Source: Escherichia phage N2. Taken from it: a DNA stretch of 64,000 nt. Made by a program: the position numbers and the translations under genes. Each line of letters begins with the position of its first letter. Within the stretch, counting starts at the first letter, position 1. The DNA lies in sequence record ON645936.1; one strand, written 5' to 3'. Shown here one piece after another: positions 1-63,890 of the stretch. Under the pieces are notes generated by a model. The model did no database searches and had not been told where the DNA came from. It saw only the letters and a program-made list of their open reading frames with translations.

Positions 1-2925
<2,925 letters not shown>

Positions 2926-4945: not shown

Positions 4946-4959
4946 GGGGCTTCGGCCCC
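4946..4959 (+). terminator. GC hairpin with UUCG tetraloop after gene 18
   Basis: GGGGC-UUCG-GCCCC; weak U tract, so may be a stability element rather than a terminator. Confidence 0.45.
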
Positions 4960-16424: not shown

Positions 16425-17936
16425 ATGACTGACATTAAAGTACATTTTTATGATTTTAGTCACGTGAGAATTGATTGTGAAGAAAGTACATTTCATGAAC
16501 TCCGTGATTTCTTTAGCTTCGAAGCTGACGGGTATCGGTTTAATCCGAAGTACAGATATGGCAACTGGGATGGACGAATCCGTCTTTTAGATTATAATCG
16601 CCTTCTTCCGTTCGGATTAGTCGGGCAAATTAAAAAGTTCTGTGATAACTTTGGCTATAAAGCCTGGATTGACCCGCAAATTAACGAAAAAGAAGAATTA
16701 TCAAGAAAAGATTTTGATGAATGGCTTTCTAAATTAGAAATCTATTCAGGCAATAAAAGAATTGAACCGCATTGGTATCAAAAAGATGCAGTGTTCGAAG
16801 GATTAGTTAATCGTCGTAGAATTCTTAATCTTCCAACATCCGCAGGTAAATCCTTAATTCAAGCTTTGCTTGCACGTTATTATTTGGAAAATTATGAAGG
16901 TAAAATTCTTATCATTGTTCCAACAACTGCTCTGACAACTCAGATGGCTGATGACTTTGTTGACTATCGTTTATTCAGTCATGCAATGATAAAGAAAATC
17001 GGTGGTGGAGCATCAAAAGATGATAAATATAAAAATGATGCACCAGTCGTTGTTGGTACATGGCAAACTGTAGTTAAACAACCAAAAGAATGGTTCTCAC
17101 AGTTTGGAATGATGATGAATGATGAATGCCATCTTGCTACAGGAAAAAGTATTTCATCTATCATATCAGGTTTAAATAACTGCATGTTCAAATTTGGTTT
17201 GTCTGGTTCATTACGTGATGGCAAAGCCAATATCATGCAGTATGTTGGAATGTTTGGTGAAATATTTAAGCCAGTAACGACTTCTAAATTAATGGAAGAT
17301 GGACAAGTAACTGAGCTAAAAATTAATAGTATTTTTCTTCGCTATCCCGATGAGTTCACTACTAAATTAAAGGGAAAAACTTACCAAGAAGAAATAAAAA
17401 TTATTACTGGGCTCAGTAAAAGAAATAAATGGATCGCTAAATTAGCTATTAAGCTTGCGCAAAAAGATGAAAACGCTTTTGTCATGTTTAAACATGTATC
17501 GCATGGTAAAGCTATTTTCGATTTAATTAAAAATGAATACGATAAAGTTTATTACGTATCAGGGGAAGTTGATACCGAAACCCGCAACGTAATGAAAACC
17601 TTAGCTGAAAATGGTAAAGGAATAATTATAGTAGCGAGTTATGGTGTATTTTCTACTGGTATTTCAGTTAAAAATCTGCATCATGTTGTTTTAGCGCACG
17701 GCGTTAAATCAAAAATCATTGTATTACAAACAATCGGTCGTGTATTACGTAAGCATGGTTCTAAAACAGTCGCAACAGTCTGGGACCTCATAGATGATTG
17801 TGGCGTTAAGCCAAAATCTGCTAATACGAAAAAGAAATATGTCCATTTGAACTATCTTTTAAAACACGGCATTGATCGTATTCAGCGCTACGCAGATGAA
17901 AAATTTAATTACGTAATGAAAACAGTTAATTTATAA
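16425..17936 (+). CDS. uvsW: UvsW RNA-DNA and DNA-DNA helicase
   Basis: 503-aa ORF; helicase motifs PTSAGKS and DECH; late promoter upstream. Confidence 0.95.
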   Translation: MTDIKVHFYDFSHVRIDCEESTFHELRDFFSFEADGYRFNPKYRYGNWDGRIRLLDYNRLLPFGLVGQIKKFCDNFGYKAWIDPQINEKEELSRKDFDEWLSKLEIYSGNKRIEPHWYQKDAVFEGLVNRRRILNLPTSAGKSLIQALLARYYLENYEGKILIIVPTTALTTQMADDFVDYRLFSHAMIKKIGGGASKDDKYKNDAPVVVGTWQTVVKQPKEWFSQFGMMMNDECHLATGKSISSIISGLNNCMFKFGLSGSLRDGKANIMQYVGMFGEIFKPVTTSKLMEDGQVTELKINSIFLRYPDEFTTKLKGKTYQEEIKIITGLSKRNKWIAKLAIKLAQKDENAFVMFKHVSHGKAIFDLIKNEYDKVYYVSGEVDTETRNVMKTLAENGKGIIIVASYGVFSTGISVKNLHHVVLAHGVKSKIIVLQTIGRVLRKHGSKTVATVWDLIDDCGVKPKSANTKKKYVHLNYLLKHGIDRIQRYADEKFNYVMKTVNL

Positions 17937-17950
17937 GGGCTTCGGCCCTT
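17937..17950 (+). terminator. hairpin after uvsW
   Basis: GGGC-UUCG-GCCC followed by TTT. Confidence 0.45.
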
Positions 17951-19247: not shown

Positions 19248-19644
19248 ATACTCTATTACTGGAAGCCAGTTGCAGTTTTATCTGCTCAATATCATCAGGG
19301 TTATCGATGACTGAAAAGCGTATTTCTACTATCAGAGTATAATCATCATAAACTGGTATTACATTAACTGCTAATTTATCAATACGCGGCTCATAGTTTC
19401 TTACTGCGCTTTCGATGTTACGCTCAACTGTATCAGCAGTAAGAGGAGTCATATTCTCAAAAAGCTGATCAGATAAATCGCATCCAAATTCTGGGTCAAA
19501 AGGTCTCGACCCTTTTCTGGTTGTAATAATTCCTAAAAGGCTATTTTTAATTGACCTTAATCCAAGAGATCTAGAAACATCTTTGTCCCAATCCATTTTC
19601 ATTTCTGGGTCAATGTCAGAATAAAGCTTATTAATATTTGCCAT
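19246..19644 (-). CDS. 25: baseplate wedge protein gp25
   Basis: 132-aa ORF, T4 gp25-like. Confidence 0.93.
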   Translation of the reverse strand: MANINKLYSDIDPEMKMDWDKDVSRSLGLRSIKNSLLGIITTRKGSRPFDPEFGCDLSDQLFENMTPLTADTVERNIESAVRNYEPRIDKLAVNVIPVYDDYTLIVEIRFSVIDNPDDIEQIKLQLASSNRV

Positions 19645-20270
19645 TACAATAGCTCAAAGAATTCTTTGAGTCCTCTTATTACATGAGCGTGAGATTTTCC
19701 ACACTCTGGACACTTAATTGGAACAGCCAAATACACAGTAGGCTTTAAAAGCATATCTTTTATAGCTACAATATCTGACTCTGTGATGATAGAATATAAA
19801 TCTTCCAACTCTTTTTCATTTAAGTCTTCAACTGGAATGCTTTCCCCGTTAGCATGAATCGTTTCTATGCATGATACTATCATGTGGGCTATATTTTTAT
19901 CATCAAAAATTTTAGGGTAATGGAACTTAATTTTAATGTCACCCAGTGTATACCAGAGGTCTTCTGGTGCATCTATTTGCGTATGTAATAGATTTATATG
20001 GGTTGGTATTTCAGTTCCACAGGTGCACTTCCAGGAGTTTTCGTGATTAACTTCTCCAAGAGAATGCGCCCATAAATGAATCAGCAGTAGTTCTGATTCT
20101 TGGCGGTTTAAATCTTTTGCATTTGTGCAGTCTTTGATTAGCTTTTTAACGATCTCTTCTACTGAACCGTTCTTTTTAGCAGTAATAAGTTCTAGATATT
20201 CTTTAAGAGTAAATGCGCGACAGTTGATTATTTTAGAACCAACTCTCACATCAAATTTGTATTCATACAT
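19644..20270 (-). CDS. 26: baseplate hub protein gp26
   Basis: 208-aa ORF; divergent from gene 51 across a shared late promoter. Confidence 0.88.
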
Positions 20271-33356: not shown

Positions 33357-33397
33357 AATATTTTCCTCAATAGGGGGCCGAAGCCCCTCATTTTATT

Positions 33398-40630: not shown

Positions 40631-42218
<1,588 letters not shown>

Positions 42219-42226
42219 AATAAAAT

Positions 42227-42240
42227 GGGCCTTGCGGCCC
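42227..42240 (-). promoter_or_regulatory. hairpin bridging a distant SD (GGAG) to the denA start codon
   Basis: TAAGGAGU-GGGCC GCAA GGCCC-AUUUUAUU-AUG on minus strand. Confidence 0.45.
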
Positions 42241-42245
42241 ACTCC

Positions 42246-43424
42246 TTAAAAATATTTTTTAAAACTCATCATAACTTTATCATCAACATCATTATCAATC
42301 TGTGCTACAAGGTAAGATGACAGTTCTACTTCTTGTGGTGCAGATTGAACATTATCAGAATTAAGGTATTCACGAATCCAAGGATATGGATGTTTAACCG
42401 GAGCATCGGTAATTGGACATGGAAGACCACACTGTTTCATACGAGATACAGTTAAGTAATCAATAAAGCTCCACATGCTATTTGTATTTAATCCAGGAAC
42501 ATCGCCATCTTTAAATAAATGAACTGCCCAATCTTTTTCTTGGCGGTTAACTTCCATGAAAATATCAACTGCTTCTTGTTCACACTCTTGAGCAATTTTA
42601 ACCCATTCATCACCATCAGTACCGGATTGAAGTTGACGAATAATATATTGAGTGCCTTTAAGGTGAAGCTGCTCATCACGTGCAATGAACTTCATAATCT
42701 TGGCATTACCTTCCATGATTTCCATGTTCTTATGGAAGTTAAAGGTACATGCAAAAGATACATAAAAACGAATAGCTTCTAAGGCATTAATAACGTGCAA
42801 ACAGAGGTAAAGAGATTTCATTAGTGCTCGTTTAGCTTCGGCTTCTTGTTTAATAGCTCGATTTAAACGAAAAACAGCATCAGGAGATTCTTTAGCTAGT
42901 TCTGTAAATTCTTTAGCATTTTCCCATTCACGGGTTTTAGTCAGAACATCATCATAATAGCGACCGATAGATTCAGCACGTTTCATAATAGCTTTATCTA
43001 GTACAATCTCATCAAATACCTTCGATGGATCAGTATAAAGATTTCGCATGATATGAGTATATGAACGACTGTGAATAGTTTCACTAAAAGTCCATGTAGC
43101 AACCCATGTATCAAGGCTTGGGTCTGAAATTAATGACATAAGTACAGCAGACGGCGCACGACCTTGAATACTATCAAGTAATGATTGATACTTCAGATTA
43201 TTAGTAAAAATATTTTGTTGATACTGAGGAAGCTTATTAAACTGTGCAGCATCCATCATCAAGTTTACTTCTTCCGGACGCCAGAAAAACGAGAGCGAAC
43301 GTTCAATAAGTTCTTCAAATACTCGATGCCGTTGAATATCATAACGCGCAATACCAAGACCTGAACCAAAAAACATAGGTTCTTTTAAAACATCGACCTG
43401 TTTAGTATTAAAAACTGTACTCAT
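42246..43424 (-). CDS. nrdB: ribonucleotide reductase small subunit, uninterrupted
   Basis: 392-aa continuous ORF with di-iron/radical subunit character. Confidence 0.93.
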   Translation of the reverse strand: MSTVFNTKQVDVLKEPMFFGSGLGIARYDIQRHRVFEELIERSLSFFWRPEEVNLMMDAAQFNKLPQYQQNIFTNNLKYQSLLDSIQGRAPSAVLMSLISDPSLDTWVATWTFSETIHSRSYTHIMRNLYTDPSKVFDEIVLDKAIMKRAESIGRYYDDVLTKTREWENAKEFTELAKESPDAVFRLNRAIKQEAEAKRALMKSLYLCLHVINALEAIRFYVSFACTFNFHKNMEIMEGNAKIMKFIARDEQLHLKGTQYIIRQLQSGTDGDEWVKIAQECEQEAVDIFMEVNRQEKDWAVHLFKDGDVPGLNTNSMWSFIDYLTVSRMKQCGLPCPITDAPVKHPYPWIREYLNSDNVQSAPQEVELSSYLVAQIDNDVDDKVMMSFKKYF

Positions 43425-45016
43425 TATTTTGTCCTGTAAACTAAATTTCCACAGTCCCAGATTCTTCTAAGACCATTTGCATAACAATTTTCTACTTCAG
43501 TTATTGTATCATCATAATTTTTAAGCTTGTTTTTAAGCTTATGTTTCATATAGCTTGAGCGGTGAAATACCTCTCCTTTATCGACGTACCAATAACATGG
43601 CTCAGAGATATGACTAAATTCCATGACAGAGTCATAAACATTTGATAATGTACTGCACCATCTTCGATTGCCATAAGATAGACAATTAATTCCTTTTAAT
43701 AATTTTGAGGCTCCTCCTACAACACAAACCCCTAATTTTGAACACATCCTTAAAAGTTCATCACCTGAGCTATATCTAGATTTACCGATAGAAATAATTT
43801 GAACTAACTCATTATTGTAATAAAGTCCTTTATACGTATGAGCTCCTGAGCAAAATCCTTGAAGATGATTCTTATTAATAAATTCTTTTGCCTCATCCTT
43901 ATTAACAAACCGTGCTTTGCATTTTCGGGCTGGTATTCTTTCTGATAATCCTAATTTATGCTTTATAATGGATTTCCAGATCTCTCTTTTTGTATCATCA
44001 ATCCATTCATTTTCGAAGATGTGAAGTAATTGAATTCCTTGTGCTTCACACATCTCTGTCTTCATCAAATGATAAGTTTCTTTAATTTTATCTGTTTCCT
44101 TTGACCCGCTAGAATGCCAATAAATTCCATCGTATTCTATAGCCAATTTTTTCTCAGGAATGTAAATATCTAATTCATACGGAGGAATAATTTTTCTAGT
44201 TTCTACGCAATCAAATCCTAGATCTAAAATGAATTGCTCTATAGAACTTTGAGTATAATGAACGTCAATTAGTCCTTTGGATGAAAGAGCTCTATAAGCC
44301 GTCATCCGAGAACAATTTGCTAATTGTTGTAGTTCTTCTATAGAAATTTTGTAATTGATTTTATCTAGTATATCATGATTAATATGACCGTTATTTTTAA
44401 TAGATTTTCCTATAGATGAATATAACGATGCCTTATATTCTTCAGTCCAATTTAATTTAGTCTTCTTAGATTTTTCGCGAGATTTTCTAGAATGCAGAAT
44501 ATCAACTGATTTACCGTTTTCTATAACTTTTCTCGCTTCTTTCACACTTTCTAATTGTGAATTATGCGTTACCCCATATCGTTCAATTAAAGTTTTTCTA
44601 TTTTTATTTCTTGAAATTTTTTGATGAGTTGTTCCATATTTTTCTAAAGAATTTTTGTGTTGAAGTTCAGACAAATATTTTTTATATTTTTCTTTTCCGC
44701 CAAAATTTGTATCACGGCTTTGAATTCTCTTATCCGCGAAAAATATCCCTGCGCAGGATTTACTACATGTTGCTGGAAATACACGTTTCTTTGCTGTTTT
44801 CAGAGAAATGAAATTTCCACAAACTGCACATTTTAGATCGTTAATGTCAATGCCTTCCATAATTTGGAACACATTGAGCTTAAAATCTATTCCATCAGTT
44901 AGAAGAGCTTTATCTTCTTCTGTTAGTCTAGATTTAAGTTTTTCTTCTCCAAATGGAAGAAACTTTCCGTTTTTGTATATATTATCAAACATAGCGTTAT
45001 TCTTAGTTAACCACAT
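43424..45016 (-). CDS. multidomain putative homing endonuclease: Cys-pair zinc ribbon, Lys-rich linker, Vsr/DUF559-like PD-(D/E)xK motif, unknown C-terminal domain
   Basis: 530-aa ORF between nrdB and nrdA; motifs CAVCGN..CSKSCAG and YELDIYIPEKKLAIEYDGIYWHS. Confidence 0.6.
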   Translation of the reverse strand: MWLTKNNAMFDNIYKNGKFLPFGEEKLKSRLTEEDKALLTDGIDFKLNVFQIMEGIDINDLKCAVCGNFISLKTAKKRVFPATCSKSCAGIFFADKRIQSRDTNFGGKEKYKKYLSELQHKNSLEKYGTTHQKISRNKNRKTLIERYGVTHNSQLESVKEARKVIENGKSVDILHSRKSREKSKKTKLNWTEEYKASLYSSIGKSIKNNGHINHDILDKINYKISIEELQQLANCSRMTAYRALSSKGLIDVHYTQSSIEQFILDLGFDCVETRKIIPPYELDIYIPEKKLAIEYDGIYWHSSGSKETDKIKETYHLMKTEMCEAQGIQLLHIFENEWIDDTKREIWKSIIKHKLGLSERIPARKCKARFVNKDEAKEFINKNHLQGFCSGAHTYKGLYYNNELVQIISIGKSRYSSGDELLRMCSKLGVCVVGGASKLLKGINCLSYGNRRWCSTLSNVYDSVMEFSHISEPCYWYVDKGEVFHRSSYMKHKLKNKLKNYDDTITEVENCYANGLRRIWDCGNLVYRTK

Positions 45017-45032
45017 CCTTGTGGTAATTATA

Positions 45033-47297
45033 TCATAATTTACAGGATGAACAATCTTCAGCTTTTGGAGTTTCTATTTCGTAATCATCAGTACCGGAAC
45101 CGTCGCGGGTATTATGATAATAGAAATTTTTTCCGCCAAAATACCAAAAATACAAAAGGTCATCAATCATTATTGACATTGGAACCTTTCCTTTTGGAAA
45201 AATCTGCGGGTCATAATATGTATTCGCTGAAGCTGATTGACATACCCATTTCAACATAATAGCTACTTGCGTAAGATAAGGTTTATTACCTTTCTTAGCT
45301 AATTTCCACGTATAATCATAGAGGTCTATGTTATGCTCAATATTGGGCACGACTTGATTAAAGGAACCCTCTTTTGATTCTTTAACAGAGACTGGTCCAC
45401 GTGGAGGCTCGATACCGTTTGTACTGTTAGAAACTTGGGAAGATGACTCACATGGCATAAGTGCTGATAATGTGCTATTACGGATGCCAAAGAGCTTAAG
45501 GTCTTCCCGCAGCGACGACCAGTCACAAACGTATTTTGGAGCTGCGATTTGGTCAATCTTTTTATTGTACCAGTCGATAGGTAATTCGCCTCGAGACCAA
45601 CGAGTGTCTGAATAATATTCGCAAGGTCCTTTTTCTTTGGCGAGCTTAATGGATGCTTTAATGAGTCCATACTGTAATCTCTCAAATAGTTCATGTGTTA
45701 AATCGTTAGCATCTTCATAAGAAGCAAAGTTACTTGCCAGCCAAGCTGCATAGTTAGTAACACCTACACCGAGGTTACGACGCTTTTTAGCTTTTTCTGC
45801 TTCAGGAACTGGATATCCTTGGTAATCCAAAAGATTATCAAGAGCACGAACTTGAACTTCTGCCAATTCATTAATTTTATCTTGGTCTTGCCAATCGAAG
45901 TTATCTAATACAAATGCGCTAAGGGTACACAATCCAATTTCAGCATCAGGACTATTCACATCATTTGTTGGAATAGCAATTTCACAGCACAAGTTACTCT
46001 GACGAATAGGTGCCTTTTCACGAATAAACGGAGTATAGTTATTCGTATTATCAATGAACTGCACATAAATCCTTGCTGTTCCTGAACGTTCAGTCATGAG
46101 CAATTCAAATAGTTCACGGGCTTTAATACGCTTTTTGCGAATATTAGGGTCTTTTTCTGCGGCTTCATACAATTCACGGAAACGGTCTTGGTCTTTAAAA
46201 TAAGAATAATAAAGCTCGCCACCCATTTCGTGTGGACTGAACAAAGTAATGTAGTCGTTCTTTCCAAAACGTTCCATCATCAAATCATTCAGTTGAACGC
46301 CATAATCCATATGACGGATACGGTTTTCTTCTACGCCTTTGTTATTTTTCAAAACGAGAAGATTTTCAACTTCCAAATGCCAAATAGGATAATAAGCAGT
46401 AGCAGCGCCGCCACGAATTCCGCCTTGTGAACATGATTTAACAGCAGTCTGAAAATGTTTCCAAAAAGGAATAACGCCAGTATGACGCACTTCACCTGTG
46501 CCAATCTTAGAACCTTCGGCACGAATCATACCAACGTTAATACCAATTCCAGCGCGTTTGGAGATATATTCAACAATTGAAGCAGAAGCCTTATTGATAG
46601 ACTTCAGCGAATCACCTGCTTCAATAACAACGCATGAACTAAACTGTCGAGTTGGAGTACGACAACCAGCCATAATAGGAGTTGGCAATGAAATCTGTCG
46701 AGTAGATACTGCTTCATAAAAACGGATAACGTGTTTTAATCTATCAACAGGTTCATCTTGATGCAATGCCATTCCAATAGTCATAAATGCAAACTGTGGA
46801 GTTTCATAAATTTGACCAGTGGTTTTATCTTTAACGAGATATTTTTCTTTTAATTGCATCGCCCCGGAATAAGTAAATTCCATATCCCGCTCGTGCTTAA
46901 TTTTTGATTCTAAAAATGTAATTTCTTCTGCTGAATATTTTGACAATAATTCAGGGTCATATTTACCTTCATTTACACAGTAAGAAATATGGTCAATAAA
47001 TGAACGGGGCTCATACTGTCCGTACACGTGTTTACGAAGAGCAAACATTAAACAGCGTGCAGCTACGTATTGATAATCAGGCTCTTCAACTGAAATAGAA
47101 TTCGCAGCAGCCTTAATTACAATGGTTTGAATGTCATCAGTGGTCATTCCATCACGGAGATATGATTTAATATTTTCATATAATTCATAAGGATCTACTG
47201 ATGTTCCTTCAGCTGCCCAAGATAAAACTTTAATAATTTTTTGTGGGTCAAAGCTCTGAGAAACACCACTACTTTTGATAACATTAATTAATTGCAT
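45033..47297 (-). CDS. nrdA: ribonucleotide reductase large subunit
   Basis: 754-aa ORF from MQLINVIKSSG with GAGGA SD; the 29-codon upstream extension in the track is rejected. Confidence 0.95.
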   Translation of the reverse strand: MQLINVIKSSGVSQSFDPQKIIKVLSWAAEGTSVDPYELYENIKSYLRDGMTTDDIQTIVIKAAANSISVEEPDYQYVAARCLMFALRKHVYGQYEPRSFIDHISYCVNEGKYDPELLSKYSAEEITFLESKIKHERDMEFTYSGAMQLKEKYLVKDKTTGQIYETPQFAFMTIGMALHQDEPVDRLKHVIRFYEAVSTRQISLPTPIMAGCRTPTRQFSSCVVIEAGDSLKSINKASASIVEYISKRAGIGINVGMIRAEGSKIGTGEVRHTGVIPFWKHFQTAVKSCSQGGIRGGAATAYYPIWHLEVENLLVLKNNKGVEENRIRHMDYGVQLNDLMMERFGKNDYITLFSPHEMGGELYYSYFKDQDRFRELYEAAEKDPNIRKKRIKARELFELLMTERSGTARIYVQFIDNTNNYTPFIREKAPIRQSNLCCEIAIPTNDVNSPDAEIGLCTLSAFVLDNFDWQDQDKINELAEVQVRALDNLLDYQGYPVPEAEKAKKRRNLGVGVTNYAAWLASNFASYEDANDLTHELFERLQYGLIKASIKLAKEKGPCEYYSDTRWSRGELPIDWYNKKIDQIAAPKYVCDWSSLREDLKLFGIRNSTLSALMPCESSSQVSNSTNGIEPPRGPVSVKESKEGSFNQVVPNIEHNIDLYDYTWKLAKKGNKPYLTQVAIMLKWVCQSASANTYYDPQIFPKGKVPMSIMIDDLLYFWYFGGKNFYYHNTRDGSGTDDYEIETPKAEDCSSCKL

Positions 47298-51387: not shown

Positions 51388-51431
51388 TGCGTTTTCCTCA
51401 TTTTAATAGGGGCTTGATAGCCCCTTGATAA

Positions 51432-60815: not shown

Positions 60816-63800
60816 ATGGCTACTTTAAAACAAATACAATTTAAAAGAAGCAAAACCGCAGGTGCACGTCCTGCTGCTTCAGTATTAGCCGAAGGTGAAT
60901 TGGCTATAAACTTAAAAGATAGAACAATTTTTACTAAAGATGATACAGGAAATATCATTGACTTAAGCATTTCTGCTGGTGGTAATATCAGTGGAAATAT
61001 CACTCAAACCGGAGATTATACACAGACTGGAAAATTTAATTTAATTGGTCCGCAAATTGTAGCAAGCGGTGGATATATTGAGTTTAATTATCGTACGACT
61101 GGAAGCGGCTCGTGGTCTGGTCAACACGCTGCAAAAGCTCCAATTTTTGTAGATTTGAGCTCCGCTCTTTCCACATCTGAATATAATCCTATAATTAAAC
61201 AGCGCTTTAAAGATGGAACTTTTTCTGTTGGTACGTTAGTAAATGAAGGAAGTTTTAAGATTCATTATATCAATGAATCGGGAACTTCAAAATACTGGAC
61301 ATTTCGTAGAGATGGTGGATTTGTTGTTGATACAGGAAGTTTGACAGTATCAGATGGTAATATTTCTGCATCAGGCAATATTAACTCGGCAACTGGATTT
61401 GTTTCTGCACCACGCGTCAATACAAAAAATATTAACTTGAGTTCTAAAACCTTTATCACGAATAATGACGCGGGTTATGACATTGTTTCTTTACCTACCT
61501 GGGTTTATAACCCACCGGCCGATGGTTCCGACAATACTACAAATGGATTGAACTATTTGCGTAAATTACGTGCATCAAGTGCAGCAAGTATTTTCCATGA
61601 AATTGCCGATTGCCGAAAAGGTAAGCCACAAGAAATTTCTTGGTGGACAGGCGTAGGCCCGGAATCTTTCCTATGGGCGTTTGATATCTCCGGTCGTATT
61701 ACTGCAGGTAAATCTATTTCAGTAGGTCTTCCTGATAACGGTGCAAATGGACGTTATCCTTTAGATTCTGCCATTTCTATCGGTATTGCAATTGGTGATA
61801 ATGACACCGGTATTAAATGGGTCCGCGATGGCGTTTATGACCTGATGGCTAACGGTATTTCATCCGCTACCATTTTGAACAACGGTATTAATAGTACTAA
61901 AAAATTGATGGTTGGTTATAGCCGCGATTCTGGTACTACTTGGGATTACCCAAATAACAACCAAGCAATGTTTACTGCGCGTACCGATGTTGATGGTAAT
62001 AATAACGGCGATGGTCAGACTCATATCGGTTATAACAGTAATTCTAAAATGTATCACTATTTCCGTGGCACGGGTCGTATGTCTGTTAGCATGGGCGATG
62101 GACTTCTTGTTGAGCCAGGTATTTTAGATATTAAAACTGGGTCTAATAGAGTTGCTATTAGAGCAGATGGTACATTTGACTCAACTCAACGTATTTCAAT
62201 GCGTACGGGCTTGTTTTTAAATGGTGATGATAATACCAATGCTTTGTCATTTAAAGCTCCTTCCGGTGTAGATGGTACCAAAACTATTAACTGGGATGCA
62301 GGCACTCGTAACGGACAGAATAAAAATACTGTTTCAATTAAAGCATGGGGTAATGCCTTTAACTCAGTTCCCGGTATTAGAGAAACTGTATTTGAAGTAT
62401 ATGATTCACAAGGTTATTATTTTTATTCACAACGCCAGCGCCCAGAAGGTTCTGAAACTGTTGGGCCCGTTGTAACCCAGTTCAATGGACCAGTTAATGC
62501 TAACGGCTCTATTAGCACTGCAGGAAATCTTAAAGTTGATGGTTTAAGCACTTTAAACGGTAATGTTACAATGAAGAACGGCTTGTTTGTCCAAGGTGGT
62601 TCTTCTATTACCGGACAAGTAAAAATTGGTGGAACAGCTGATGCATTAAGAATTTGGAATGCCGAATACGGTGCTATTTTCCGTCGCTCAGAAACAGCAT
62701 TACATATTATCCCGACTCCTAAAGATGCTGGTGAAAGTGGTGGAATAAGTAATCTCCGCCCATTAAGTATTAGTCTTAATAATGGTATGGTACAAATGCG
62801 TCATTCGGTTACATTAGGCGACGATGGATTAGGCGGCAATATGGTTACTATTGATAATGATAGTAAACTTGTTGTGATAACTTCTAATACCAGATTAAGC
62901 CCTAATTTCCGCATGCAAATAGGCCACTCGTCTTATATTGATGTTGAATGCACTAACTCTGTTCGCCCGGCAGGTGCTGGTTCGTTTGCTTCACAGAATA
63001 ACGAAAATGTTCGTGCACCGTTCTATATGAATATCGACCGTGGTGATAATAGTACTTATATTCCAATTTTGAAGCAACGTTACGTTCAAGGAGATAGTAC
63101 TTATTCTATTGGCACCTTAATTTCTCAAGGAGACTTCCGCGTACATTATCACCAGGGCACTAGTACTACCGGAACTGATATAAGTTGGGAATTCCGTCGT
63201 ACTGGTGACTTCCGCACACCTGGTAAAATTATTGCCGGTGCTGCTACTCTTGGCACTGATGGCAATATTACGGGTGGTTCTGGTAACTTTGCTAACTTAA
63301 ACAGTACAATTGAATCACTTAAAACTGATATTGTTTCAAGTTATCCTATTGGAGCTCCAATTCCATGGCCAACGGATACTCCTCCTGACGGTTACGCTAT
63401 TATGGAAGGTCAGACTTTTGATAAGTCTGCATATCCAAAGCTAGCTGTTGCATATCCTAGCGGTGTTATTCCAGATATGCGCGGGCAGACTATCAAGGGT
63501 AAACCAAGCGGTCGTGATGTTTTGAGCGCAGAAGCAGATGGTGTTAAGGCTCATAGCCATAGTGCATCTGCTTCAAATACTGACTTAGGCACTAAAACCA
63601 CATCAAGCTTTGACTATGGTACGAAGAACACTAATAGTACTGGTGCTCACACTCACTCTGTAAGTGGTACAACAAGTGCTGCTGGTAACCACGCTCATCA
63701 CTTAGGTCTACTATTAGTTATCGGCGATGATGCTTTGTACGGTTATACAACCATTGGTAACAGTCTACCTAGAACACTTGACTGGCTTGACAAAGAGACA

Positions 63801-63890
63801 ATAAGTTCCCTAACACTAACACAACTGGTAACCATACACACACATGGTCTGGTACTACAAGCGGTGCTGGTGACCATTCCCACTCTGTAG
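60816..63890 (+). CDS. 37: long tail fibre distal subunit gp37; reading frame breaks near 63791-63812 and the His-box tip continues in another frame to the window end
   Basis: 1024-aa ORF; remaining HxH-box sequence ..[58 protein letters not shown] is read in the frame of codon 63791. Confidence 0.85.

Follow-up and report, generated by a model that had tools for sequence, protein, structure and literature searches.

Two genes of bacteriophage T4, genes 38 and 25, have been described as possessing split translation initiation regions, in which an RNA structure shortens the spacing between the Shine-Dalgarno (SD) sequence and the initiator AUG, from 22 to 5 nucleotides (nt) and from 27 to 11 nt, respectively (PMC3014915). 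Mutations that destabilize these structures reduce initiation, and the gene 25 structure is conserved in close T-even phages only; the review that names the 2 genes as split sites makes no mention of denA, the gene for endonuclease II (PMC3014915). We describe here the nrdB-denA junction in a 64,000-nt stretch of DNA from Escherichia phage N2 (sequence record ON645936.1; the whole stretch is referred to below as the window), and suggest from sequence, modelling and analogy, with a probability of about 0.6, that this junction holds a split, or hairpin-bridged, site for initiating translation like those of genes 38 and 25. denA is likely a third example of a known device, not a new mechanism; it would be the third split ribosome-binding site in T4, and the sole one in a prereplicative gene. 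The possibility had been raised in a prediction made from the DNA sequence alone (the original prediction), whose statement that the device is known for a few T4 genes agrees with the descriptions of genes 38 and 25 (PMC3014915).

The window belongs to a T4-like phage of the genus Tequatrovirus, with Shigella phage SH-2 as best match (99.8%) and the T4T record at 97.5%, and the genes around the junction, all on the minus strand, are nrdB, denA and rnlA. The minus-strand RNA reads AAA UAU UUU UAA GGAG U GGGCC GCAA GGCCC AUUUUAUU AUG AAA GAA, all features of the junction being on this strand. The nrdB coding sequence (CDS; 42246..43424), assigned from the list of open reading frames (ORFs) and the nrdB label in relatives, specifies 392 amino acids (aa) without an intron. 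Its UAA stop codon (42248..42246) gives the first bases of the denA SD sequence, UAAGGAG (42242..42248), of which the core GGAG occupies 42245..42242. There follow a single U (42241), the 14-nt hairpin GGGCC-GCAA-GGCCC with 5 G/C pairs and a GNRA tetraloop (42227..42240), the 8-nt A/U-rich spacer AUUUUAUU, which contains no SD and is a possible U-tract of a weak intrinsic terminator (42219..42226), and denA (41808..42218; AUG at 42218..42216), whose product is a GIY-YIG endonuclease II of 136 aa as judged from the ORF, the protein construct of structure 2WSH and N-terminal conservation.

This is the order of elements that had been predicted, and 2 details of the prediction can be made more exact. 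The SD had been placed about 28 nt from the AUG; the distance is indeed long, but the first G of GGAG is at -27 relative to the AUG, and 23 nt separate the motif from the start codon. GGAG had also been called the only SD, and we found no other SD-like sequence to the 5' side of the AUG, but the element is fuller than GGAG, extending as UAAGGAG into the nrdB stop codon. The calculated energy of its duplex with the anti-SD sequence at the 3' end of 16S rRNA was -7.8 kcal/mol, versus +2.6 kcal/mol for the segment that follows the hairpin. The linear distance of 23 nt is of the non-functional order found in the known split sites (22–27 nt), a stable hairpin lies wholly between SD and start, and there is no alternative SD at canonical distance. 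With the 14-nt hairpin looped out, 9 nt (1 + 8) are left between GGAG and AUG, which, as predicted, falls in a functional range (5–11 nt for the known members).

The closest resemblance is to gene 38, which we read from the T4T record, as the window ends about 24 nt short of the gene 37 stop codon. The T4 gene 38 region has the sequence UAA GGAG A GGGGC UUCG GCCCC UUCUAAAU AUG, and the 4 + 1 + 14 + 8 layout of denA is identical to it position for position: in both, an upstream UAA is fused to GGAG, the 14-nt hairpin is a 5-base pair (bp) G/C stem closed by a stable tetraloop, and the spacer comprises 8 A/U-rich nt. The 2 regions differ in their loops: gene 38 has UUCG, which is also the loop in denA of most other genera, and the T4-type denA has GCAA. 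They differ also in that denA is prereplicative while gene 38 is expressed late and from the opposite strand, in that sequestration of GGAG is predicted to be stronger in denA, and in that the gene 38 split site has experimental support while that of denA is predicted from sequence.

Gene 25 lies within the window and served as an internal positive control. Its split initiation region, GAGGA-CUCAAAGAAUUCUUUGAG-CUAUUGUA-AUG (19642..19675, minus strand), which is described as validated (PMC3014915), likewise has a hairpin separating SD (GAGGA) from AUG and, as in denA, a post-hairpin spacer of 8 nt. In contrast to the denA hairpin, which is G/C-rich (-10 kcal/mol), intergenic and followed by a terminator-like tail, the gene 25 hairpin is 18 nt long, has an A/U-rich 7-bp stem of -6.4 kcal/mol, and is inside the gene 26 CDS. 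The gene 26 stop codon overlaps the gene 25 AUG (UAAUG). The denA junction resembles such coupling through stop/start overlaps (ATGA, UAAUG) in that the denA SD overlaps the upstream stop codon, but the nrdB stop and the denA start are, by our count, 27 nt apart with a stable hairpin in between.

We scanned the window together with positions 1–97 kb and 159.5–168.9 kb of T4T, about 2,000 ATGs in all, for an SD (GGAG, GAGG, AGGA or AAGG) followed by 0–3 nt, a hairpin of -5 kcal/mol or lower, 4–11 nt without an SD-like triplet, and an ATG opening at least 30 codons. This rule recovered both known split sites and added denA and one weak ATG internal to nrdC.6, and nothing else; within the window, 2 of 720 candidate ATGs, those of denA and gene 25, showed the SD-hairpin-AUG arrangement. 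The nrdC.6 match (L061 ~2628; T4T 52527, minus strand) reads AAAGGA-ta-TGACCTTTATGGTCG-gcta-ATG, with a 4-bp stem and a hairpin of -5.8 kcal/mol; it is probably a false positive, and could be an internal start.

To what extent the arrangement is shared was read from the junctions of named Mosigvirus, Dhakavirus and Jiaodavirus phages and from 46 loci of the IMG/VR database located by DenA alignment, which yielded 25 distinct sequences. These variants, on which the following counts are based, represent Tequatrovirus, Mosigvirus, Dhakavirus, Jiaodavirus, Yersinia phage TG1 and many IMG/VR contigs, with DenA identities of 60–100%. All 25 have the same order of parts: a UAA stop with SD, 0–3 nt, a G/C hairpin, 6–10 U-rich nt and AUG. 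Examples of the junctions are, for Mosigvirus, UAAGGAC GGGAC UUCG GUCCC ACUUUAUU AUG; for Dhakavirus, UAAGGAAU GGGGC UUCG GCCCC UUAUUGCU AUG; and for Jiaodavirus, UAAGGAAA GGGGC UUCG GCCCC UCUUUAUU AUG. Directly after the stop codon stands (A)(A)GG(A/U/C), or GAGAGGG in 2 variants; an AAGG core is present in 23 of the variants and AAGAGAGGG in the other 2. The 2 G's to the 3' side of the stop are almost invariant though non-coding, while adjacent positions vary, and in most genera GGAG is swapped for GGAA, GGAC, GGAU or GGU with the rest of the element kept. No variant contains an SD-like sequence between hairpin and AUG. Duplex energies with the anti-SD ranged from -1.7 to -7.8 kcal/mol before the hairpin and were -0.1 kcal/mol or higher between hairpin and AUG. 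The linear distance from AGG to AUG is 23–29 nt, and becomes 6–14 nt, mostly 8–11, when the maximal Watson-Crick hairpin is subtracted; the segment following the maximal Watson-Crick stem is 6–10 nt long in every variant.

The hairpin itself changes in sequence while remaining a hairpin. In the alignment of the 25 variants (alignment A2), 89% of helix cells were paired and 27 cells carried double changes, versus 9.6 in shuffles; the covariation score was 0.44, versus 0.19 in shuffles, a value that none of 500 shuffles reached, and controls in which the partner strand was slid scored far lower. Five of the 7 helix pairs were changed on both sides, and 3 stem positions covary: pair 14-21 occurs as GC, CG, AU and GU, pair 11-24 as GC and AU, and pair 10-25 as AU, GC, UA and CG. 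Pairing in the lower stem is not conserved; 12 variants leave pair 9-26 unpaired. The loop alternates between 2 stable tetraloop classes, GNRA and UNCG: the T4 type has GCAA, most other genera have UUCG, and single variants have UUAG, UUUG or a 5-nt loop; the sole loop polymorphism within the T4 type, a change from GCAA to GUAA, remains GNRA. Because the covariation exceeds that of shuffles and of slid-partner controls, the RNA structure at the junction is, by the measure of sequence comparison, real and under selection. The structure is thus kept in relatives with compensatory changes. The proposal of a split site came through every in silico test able to refute it, so far as sequence and modelling can bear on the matter.

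Several observations weigh against that proposal. In 2 variants (L042 and L043) the upstream SD is weak (AAGAGA, -1.7 kcal/mol), and the near-constant length of the junction could partly mean that indels are few and not that spacing is selected. In the predicted minimum-energy fold of the T4 type, GGAG is buried, so that the structure could also dampen initiation. The hairpin with its U-rich tail resembles an intrinsic terminator and has been annotated as a 'putative transcriptional terminator' in phages G50 (-15.3) and MM02 (-12.4). Yersinia phage fHe-Yen9-01 has neither hairpin nor SD, its nrdB stop overlapping the denA start (ATGA), which suggests that coupling alone can suffice. Finally, the literature we searched contained no report of a split ribosome-binding site, of terminator mapping or of ribosome profiling specific to denA, although older papers may mention the gene.

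The stop/start overlap sequence of fHe-Yen9-01 is ACTTATGA (KY593455, L037 ~1490..1503). Similarity of this phage to its relatives phiR1-RT and TG1 sets in close to the start of denA (query position 300 of 601), suggesting a recombination junction; TG1 retains the hairpin. Outside the Tevenvirinae, as compared in Krischvirus, Tulanevirus and Slopekvirus, denA does not adjoin nrdB. In the leader of Krischvirus denA the elements stand in their usual order, hairpin, GAGGAAAGGA, AUG, and in Tulanevirus and Slopekvirus upstream genes overlap denA or pack tightly against it. Since these 3 genera have neither the adjacency nor the split arrangement, the latter appears, from the sequences compared, to accompany nrdB-denA adjacency in the T-even group. 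In this limited phylogenetic range, present in Tevenvirinae and absent from Krischvirus, Tulanevirus and Slopekvirus, the denA arrangement is again like that of gene 25.

Computed folds of the T4-type junction bear on the possibility that the structure is mainly inhibitory, with an extended stem hiding the SD and keeping a potentially harmful nuclease low, and with translation having to wait until the stem is opened, for instance by ribosomes ending nrdB. The core hairpin has an energy of -10.0 kcal/mol and an ensemble frequency of 0.976. ViennaRNA favours an extended 10-bp stem of -16.4 kcal/mol (z = -4.3, with none of 200 shuffles folding as stably); the added pairs, U-A, G-U, A-U, G-U and G-U, join GGAGU to AUUUU. 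The probability of being unpaired was 0.01–0.30 for GGAG of the T4 type in a 93-nt context, versus 0.33–0.40 in gene 38 and 0.2–0.75 in gene 25, and for several other genera too the minimum-energy fold joins AAGGA to the pyrimidine tail. SD-sequestering hairpins are, moreover, known in T4 for gene e, I-TevI and others (PMC3014915). We nevertheless regard a mainly inhibitory role as unlikely. The lower stem that would hide the SD is the part whose pairs are not conserved, and it consists of G-U and A-U pairs that could be displaced by the anti-SD duplex of -7.8 kcal/mol; the experimentally supported sites of genes 38 and 25 show similar predicted partial pairing of the SD; and were the stem fully open, the SD would be at the non-functional distance of 23 nt from the AUG, so that the core hairpin would still be needed as a bridge. 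From the predicted folds, the denA element may also limit expression.

A second possibility is that the hairpin acts mainly on nrdB transcripts, as a Rho-independent terminator or attenuator that also shields them from 3'-exonucleases, the SD-hairpin-AUG geometry being incidental. A low level of DenA would then come from read-through RNA, translated by termination-reinitiation of ribosomes finishing nrdB, and AAGGA would do no more than help to keep the 30S subunit on the RNA. The tail AUUUUAUU that follows the G/C stem is U at 6 of 8 positions, the variants have on average 4.9 U in the 8 nt past the core stem (a mean that includes 2 mis-anchored variants), and the purine-rich AAGGA is able to pair with the U-tract in the manner of a terminator A-tract. 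G/C stem-loops of T4-type phages, including that of the PeSL cassette, have been shown to terminate transcription (PMC2839356), and a comparable hairpin in mobE gives 30–50% termination (PMC2790892). The terminator annotations in G50 and MM02, and the replacement of the whole element by an ATGA overlap in fHe-Yen9-01, are also as this explanation would have it. However, the stem has just 5–6 Watson-Crick pairs (5 G/C, or 6 with a U-A pair) and the U-run is interrupted. A consensus terminator scan did not report the hairpin, extending its stem through G-U pairs and then counting too few T in the tail; because the scan absorbs the tail into the extended stem, its silence is not evidence against termination. 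More telling, a terminator alone leaves unexplained the conserved GG, the lack of a downstream SD and the constant 6–10 nt between hairpin and AUG, while at other hairpins of the same genome SD and AUG come 15–25 nt further on. An efficient terminator would, furthermore, silence denA, there being no promoter between hairpin and AUG, and the role described for the gene 38 element, which is built identically, is that of enhancing translation (PMC3014915). We therefore hold a purely terminating or stabilizing function to be possible but doubtful; a dual role, as partial terminator or stabilizer and split ribosome-binding site, is plausible. Automated 'terminator' calls at this junction may mislabel, or half describe, a translational element.

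Comparison of the denA hairpin with others in the window shows in what respect it is unusual. Perfect hairpins with 5-bp stems, at least 4 G/C pairs and 4-nt loops occur at 14 loci in the window, which is 36% G+C, versus about 1.5 expected from shuffles, an over-representation of approximately 9-fold (examples are at 4946, 11591, 12949, 14535, 17936, 26567, 27258, 33374 and 51410). Mostly they carry UUCG or GNRA loops on the transcribed strand and are intergenic, and several precede an SD and AUG or a late promoter. Because of this excess, G/C tetraloop hairpins are to be seen as a selected feature of the genome generally, and the denA copy is special by its position. At the other loci we examined (33387..33374, 51423..51410 and 17936..17949), and in the Krischvirus denA leader, the SD comes after the hairpin; at denA it comes before, and the order of elements there is for this reason special and not the default. 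The intergenic terminator or stabilizer stem-loops of T4-type phages thus share the GGGNC-tetraloop-GNCCC form of the denA hairpin, but in them the SD of the next gene follows the hairpin. The PeSL cassette combines a stem-loop with an adjacent early promoter that is strong and sigma-70-like (PMC2839356). An early promoter adjoins the PeSL stem-loops but none follows that of denA, whose stem is short as terminator stems go; we rejected a PeSL cassette at this locus, where 8 nt separate hairpin from AUG and hold no promoter-like site. A search of 41500..43000 against Rfam in E-value mode gave sub-threshold chance matches only (L20_leader, 23 bits against a cutoff of 58.7).

The split-site interpretation depends also on which codon begins denA, and the records disagree, giving 136, 144 or 145 aa in GenBank. 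An in-frame GUG (42240..42242) is the start in the GenBank annotation of T4T (HM137666; CDS 137533..137967, L003 759..1193), which would give a protein of 144 aa and make the hairpin coding; 2 Dhakavirus records similarly place an ATG start at the equivalent position, within the SD and foot of the hairpin, for a product of 145 aa (L004 859..1296; L006 1259..1696). We give initiation at the GUG next to no likelihood. An in-frame ATG or GTG occurs at the GUG position in just 4 of the 25 variants; in 12 the number of nt in the junction is not divisible by 3, and others have a stop or a non-start codon in frame. AAGGA abuts the GUG with a spacing of 0–1 nt. DenA proteins align from M1 across genera, conservation beginning with MKEIA or MKDIA, and crystallized endonuclease II (EndoII; PDB 2WSH) consists of a His-tag followed by MKEIA, the 136-aa form, with which the E118A numbering also fits. 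The GUG start was consequently rejected for its lack of conservation, and AUG 42218 is, on the indirect evidence of sequence and the 2WSH construct, almost certainly the denA start. Since the upstream start is not conserved, DenA aligns from M1 and the crystallized protein begins MKEIA, the T4T GTG and Dhakavirus upstream-ATG annotations are very probably wrong, and the inconsistency of length is settled in favour of the conserved AUG and 136 aa. The original prediction had treated the GUG as an alternative start only, which these observations uphold. It had also put the GUG within the hairpin, which holds only for the extended G-U stem given by ViennaRNA; the codon otherwise straddles the last G of GGAG, the single U and the first base of the stem.

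GGAG might alternatively be chiefly a target of the RegB endoribonuclease, inactivating denA mRNA early in infection. RegB cleaves GGAG in the intergenic initiation regions of early genes, and the fourth G of the denA GGAG is at the foot of the hairpin. Nevertheless, the denA context, GGAGUGGGCCG, fails the strong-site consensus GGAGRAYARAA (PMC3014915). Secondary structure protects against RegB, and a stable hairpin follows the denA GGAG; nor is GGAG conserved in the variants at large, being limited to the T4 type and a few further lineages. As the main function of the sequence a RegB site was rejected, the consensus being unmet and GGAG not conserved, and we consider it highly improbable.

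If the junction is a split initiation region, its operation may be pictured as follows. denA, which lacks a promoter between hairpin and AUG, would be read from transcripts that run through nrdB. The 8 nt of the spacer are too few to hold a promoter and no promoter-like site was found there, so that any denA message with a normal leader should have the hairpin in its initiation region; each would carry UAAGGAG, the 14-nt G/C tetraloop hairpin, 8 A/U-rich bases and AUG. On the minus strand from 41000 to 46000 we found neither a late promoter motif (TATAAATA) nor a MotA-box motif, and sigma-70-like matches were at shuffle level. In unfolded RNA the SD would be too far from the AUG, at 23 nt; formation of the hairpin would loop out the intervening sequence and leave 9 nt between GGAG and AUG, whereupon the 30S subunit could pair its anti-SD with UAAGGAG and bring the start codon into the P site. 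The 5' arm would be melted by each ribosome that terminates on nrdB, and once that ribosome is released the hairpin would refold and present the site. The hairpin with its U-rich tail probably serves also as a weak terminator or 3'-end protector for nrdB RNA, and the joint effect would be a lower expression of the nuclease than of the abundant reductase subunit. That folding stimulates denA initiation we infer from modelling and from the analogy to genes 38 and 25. Translational coupling of denA to nrdB is likely in some degree because the SD overlaps the nrdB stop codon, and the ATGA overlap in the fHe-Yen9-01 junction supports a coupling component.

A broader and more tentative idea is that a stop codon fused to an SD, a 14-nt G/C tetraloop hairpin, 8 nt and AUG constitute a dual-function junction cassette that T-even phages can reuse, present at both the gene 37-38 and nrdB-denA junctions, in which a single hairpin partially terminates or stabilizes the upstream message, bridges the split SD, and ties initiation to refolding after the upstream ribosome leaves. 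We think this possible, though not probable. If true, the cassette would be a hard-wired step-down in expression from an abundant protein (gp37, NrdB) to a low-copy partner (gp38, EndoII), and a compact natural part for fixing the expression ratios of adjacent genes. The 25 covarying natural variants, together with the gene 38 layout, would be well suited to studying how a hairpin is accommodated between SD and start on the 30S subunit.

Upstream of the junction, an ORF for a 530-aa homing endonuclease (43424..45016, minus strand) lies between nrdA and nrdB (phrog_3339, E = 3e-151; phrog_559, HNH endonuclease). At this position T4 has the 141-aa mobE, and unlike the nrdB of T4T, that of the window is a continuous ORF of 392 aa. 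The middle promoter of nrdB in T4 is inside mobE (PMC2790892). With another ORF in the place of mobE, the promoters that feed nrdB and denA in this phage may not be those of T4.

Near the end of the window, tail-fibre gene 37 contains an apparent frameshift (63780..63890, plus strand). The ORF from 60816 stops at a TAG (63888..63890), and the conserved C-terminal region of gp37, which includes NIAFNY, is carried on in a different frame that runs from about 63791 to the end of the window. In phage sutha, the closest at the end of gene 37 (99.0%), 402 nt align with 401 nt here, which suggests a 1-nt indel or a sequencing error.

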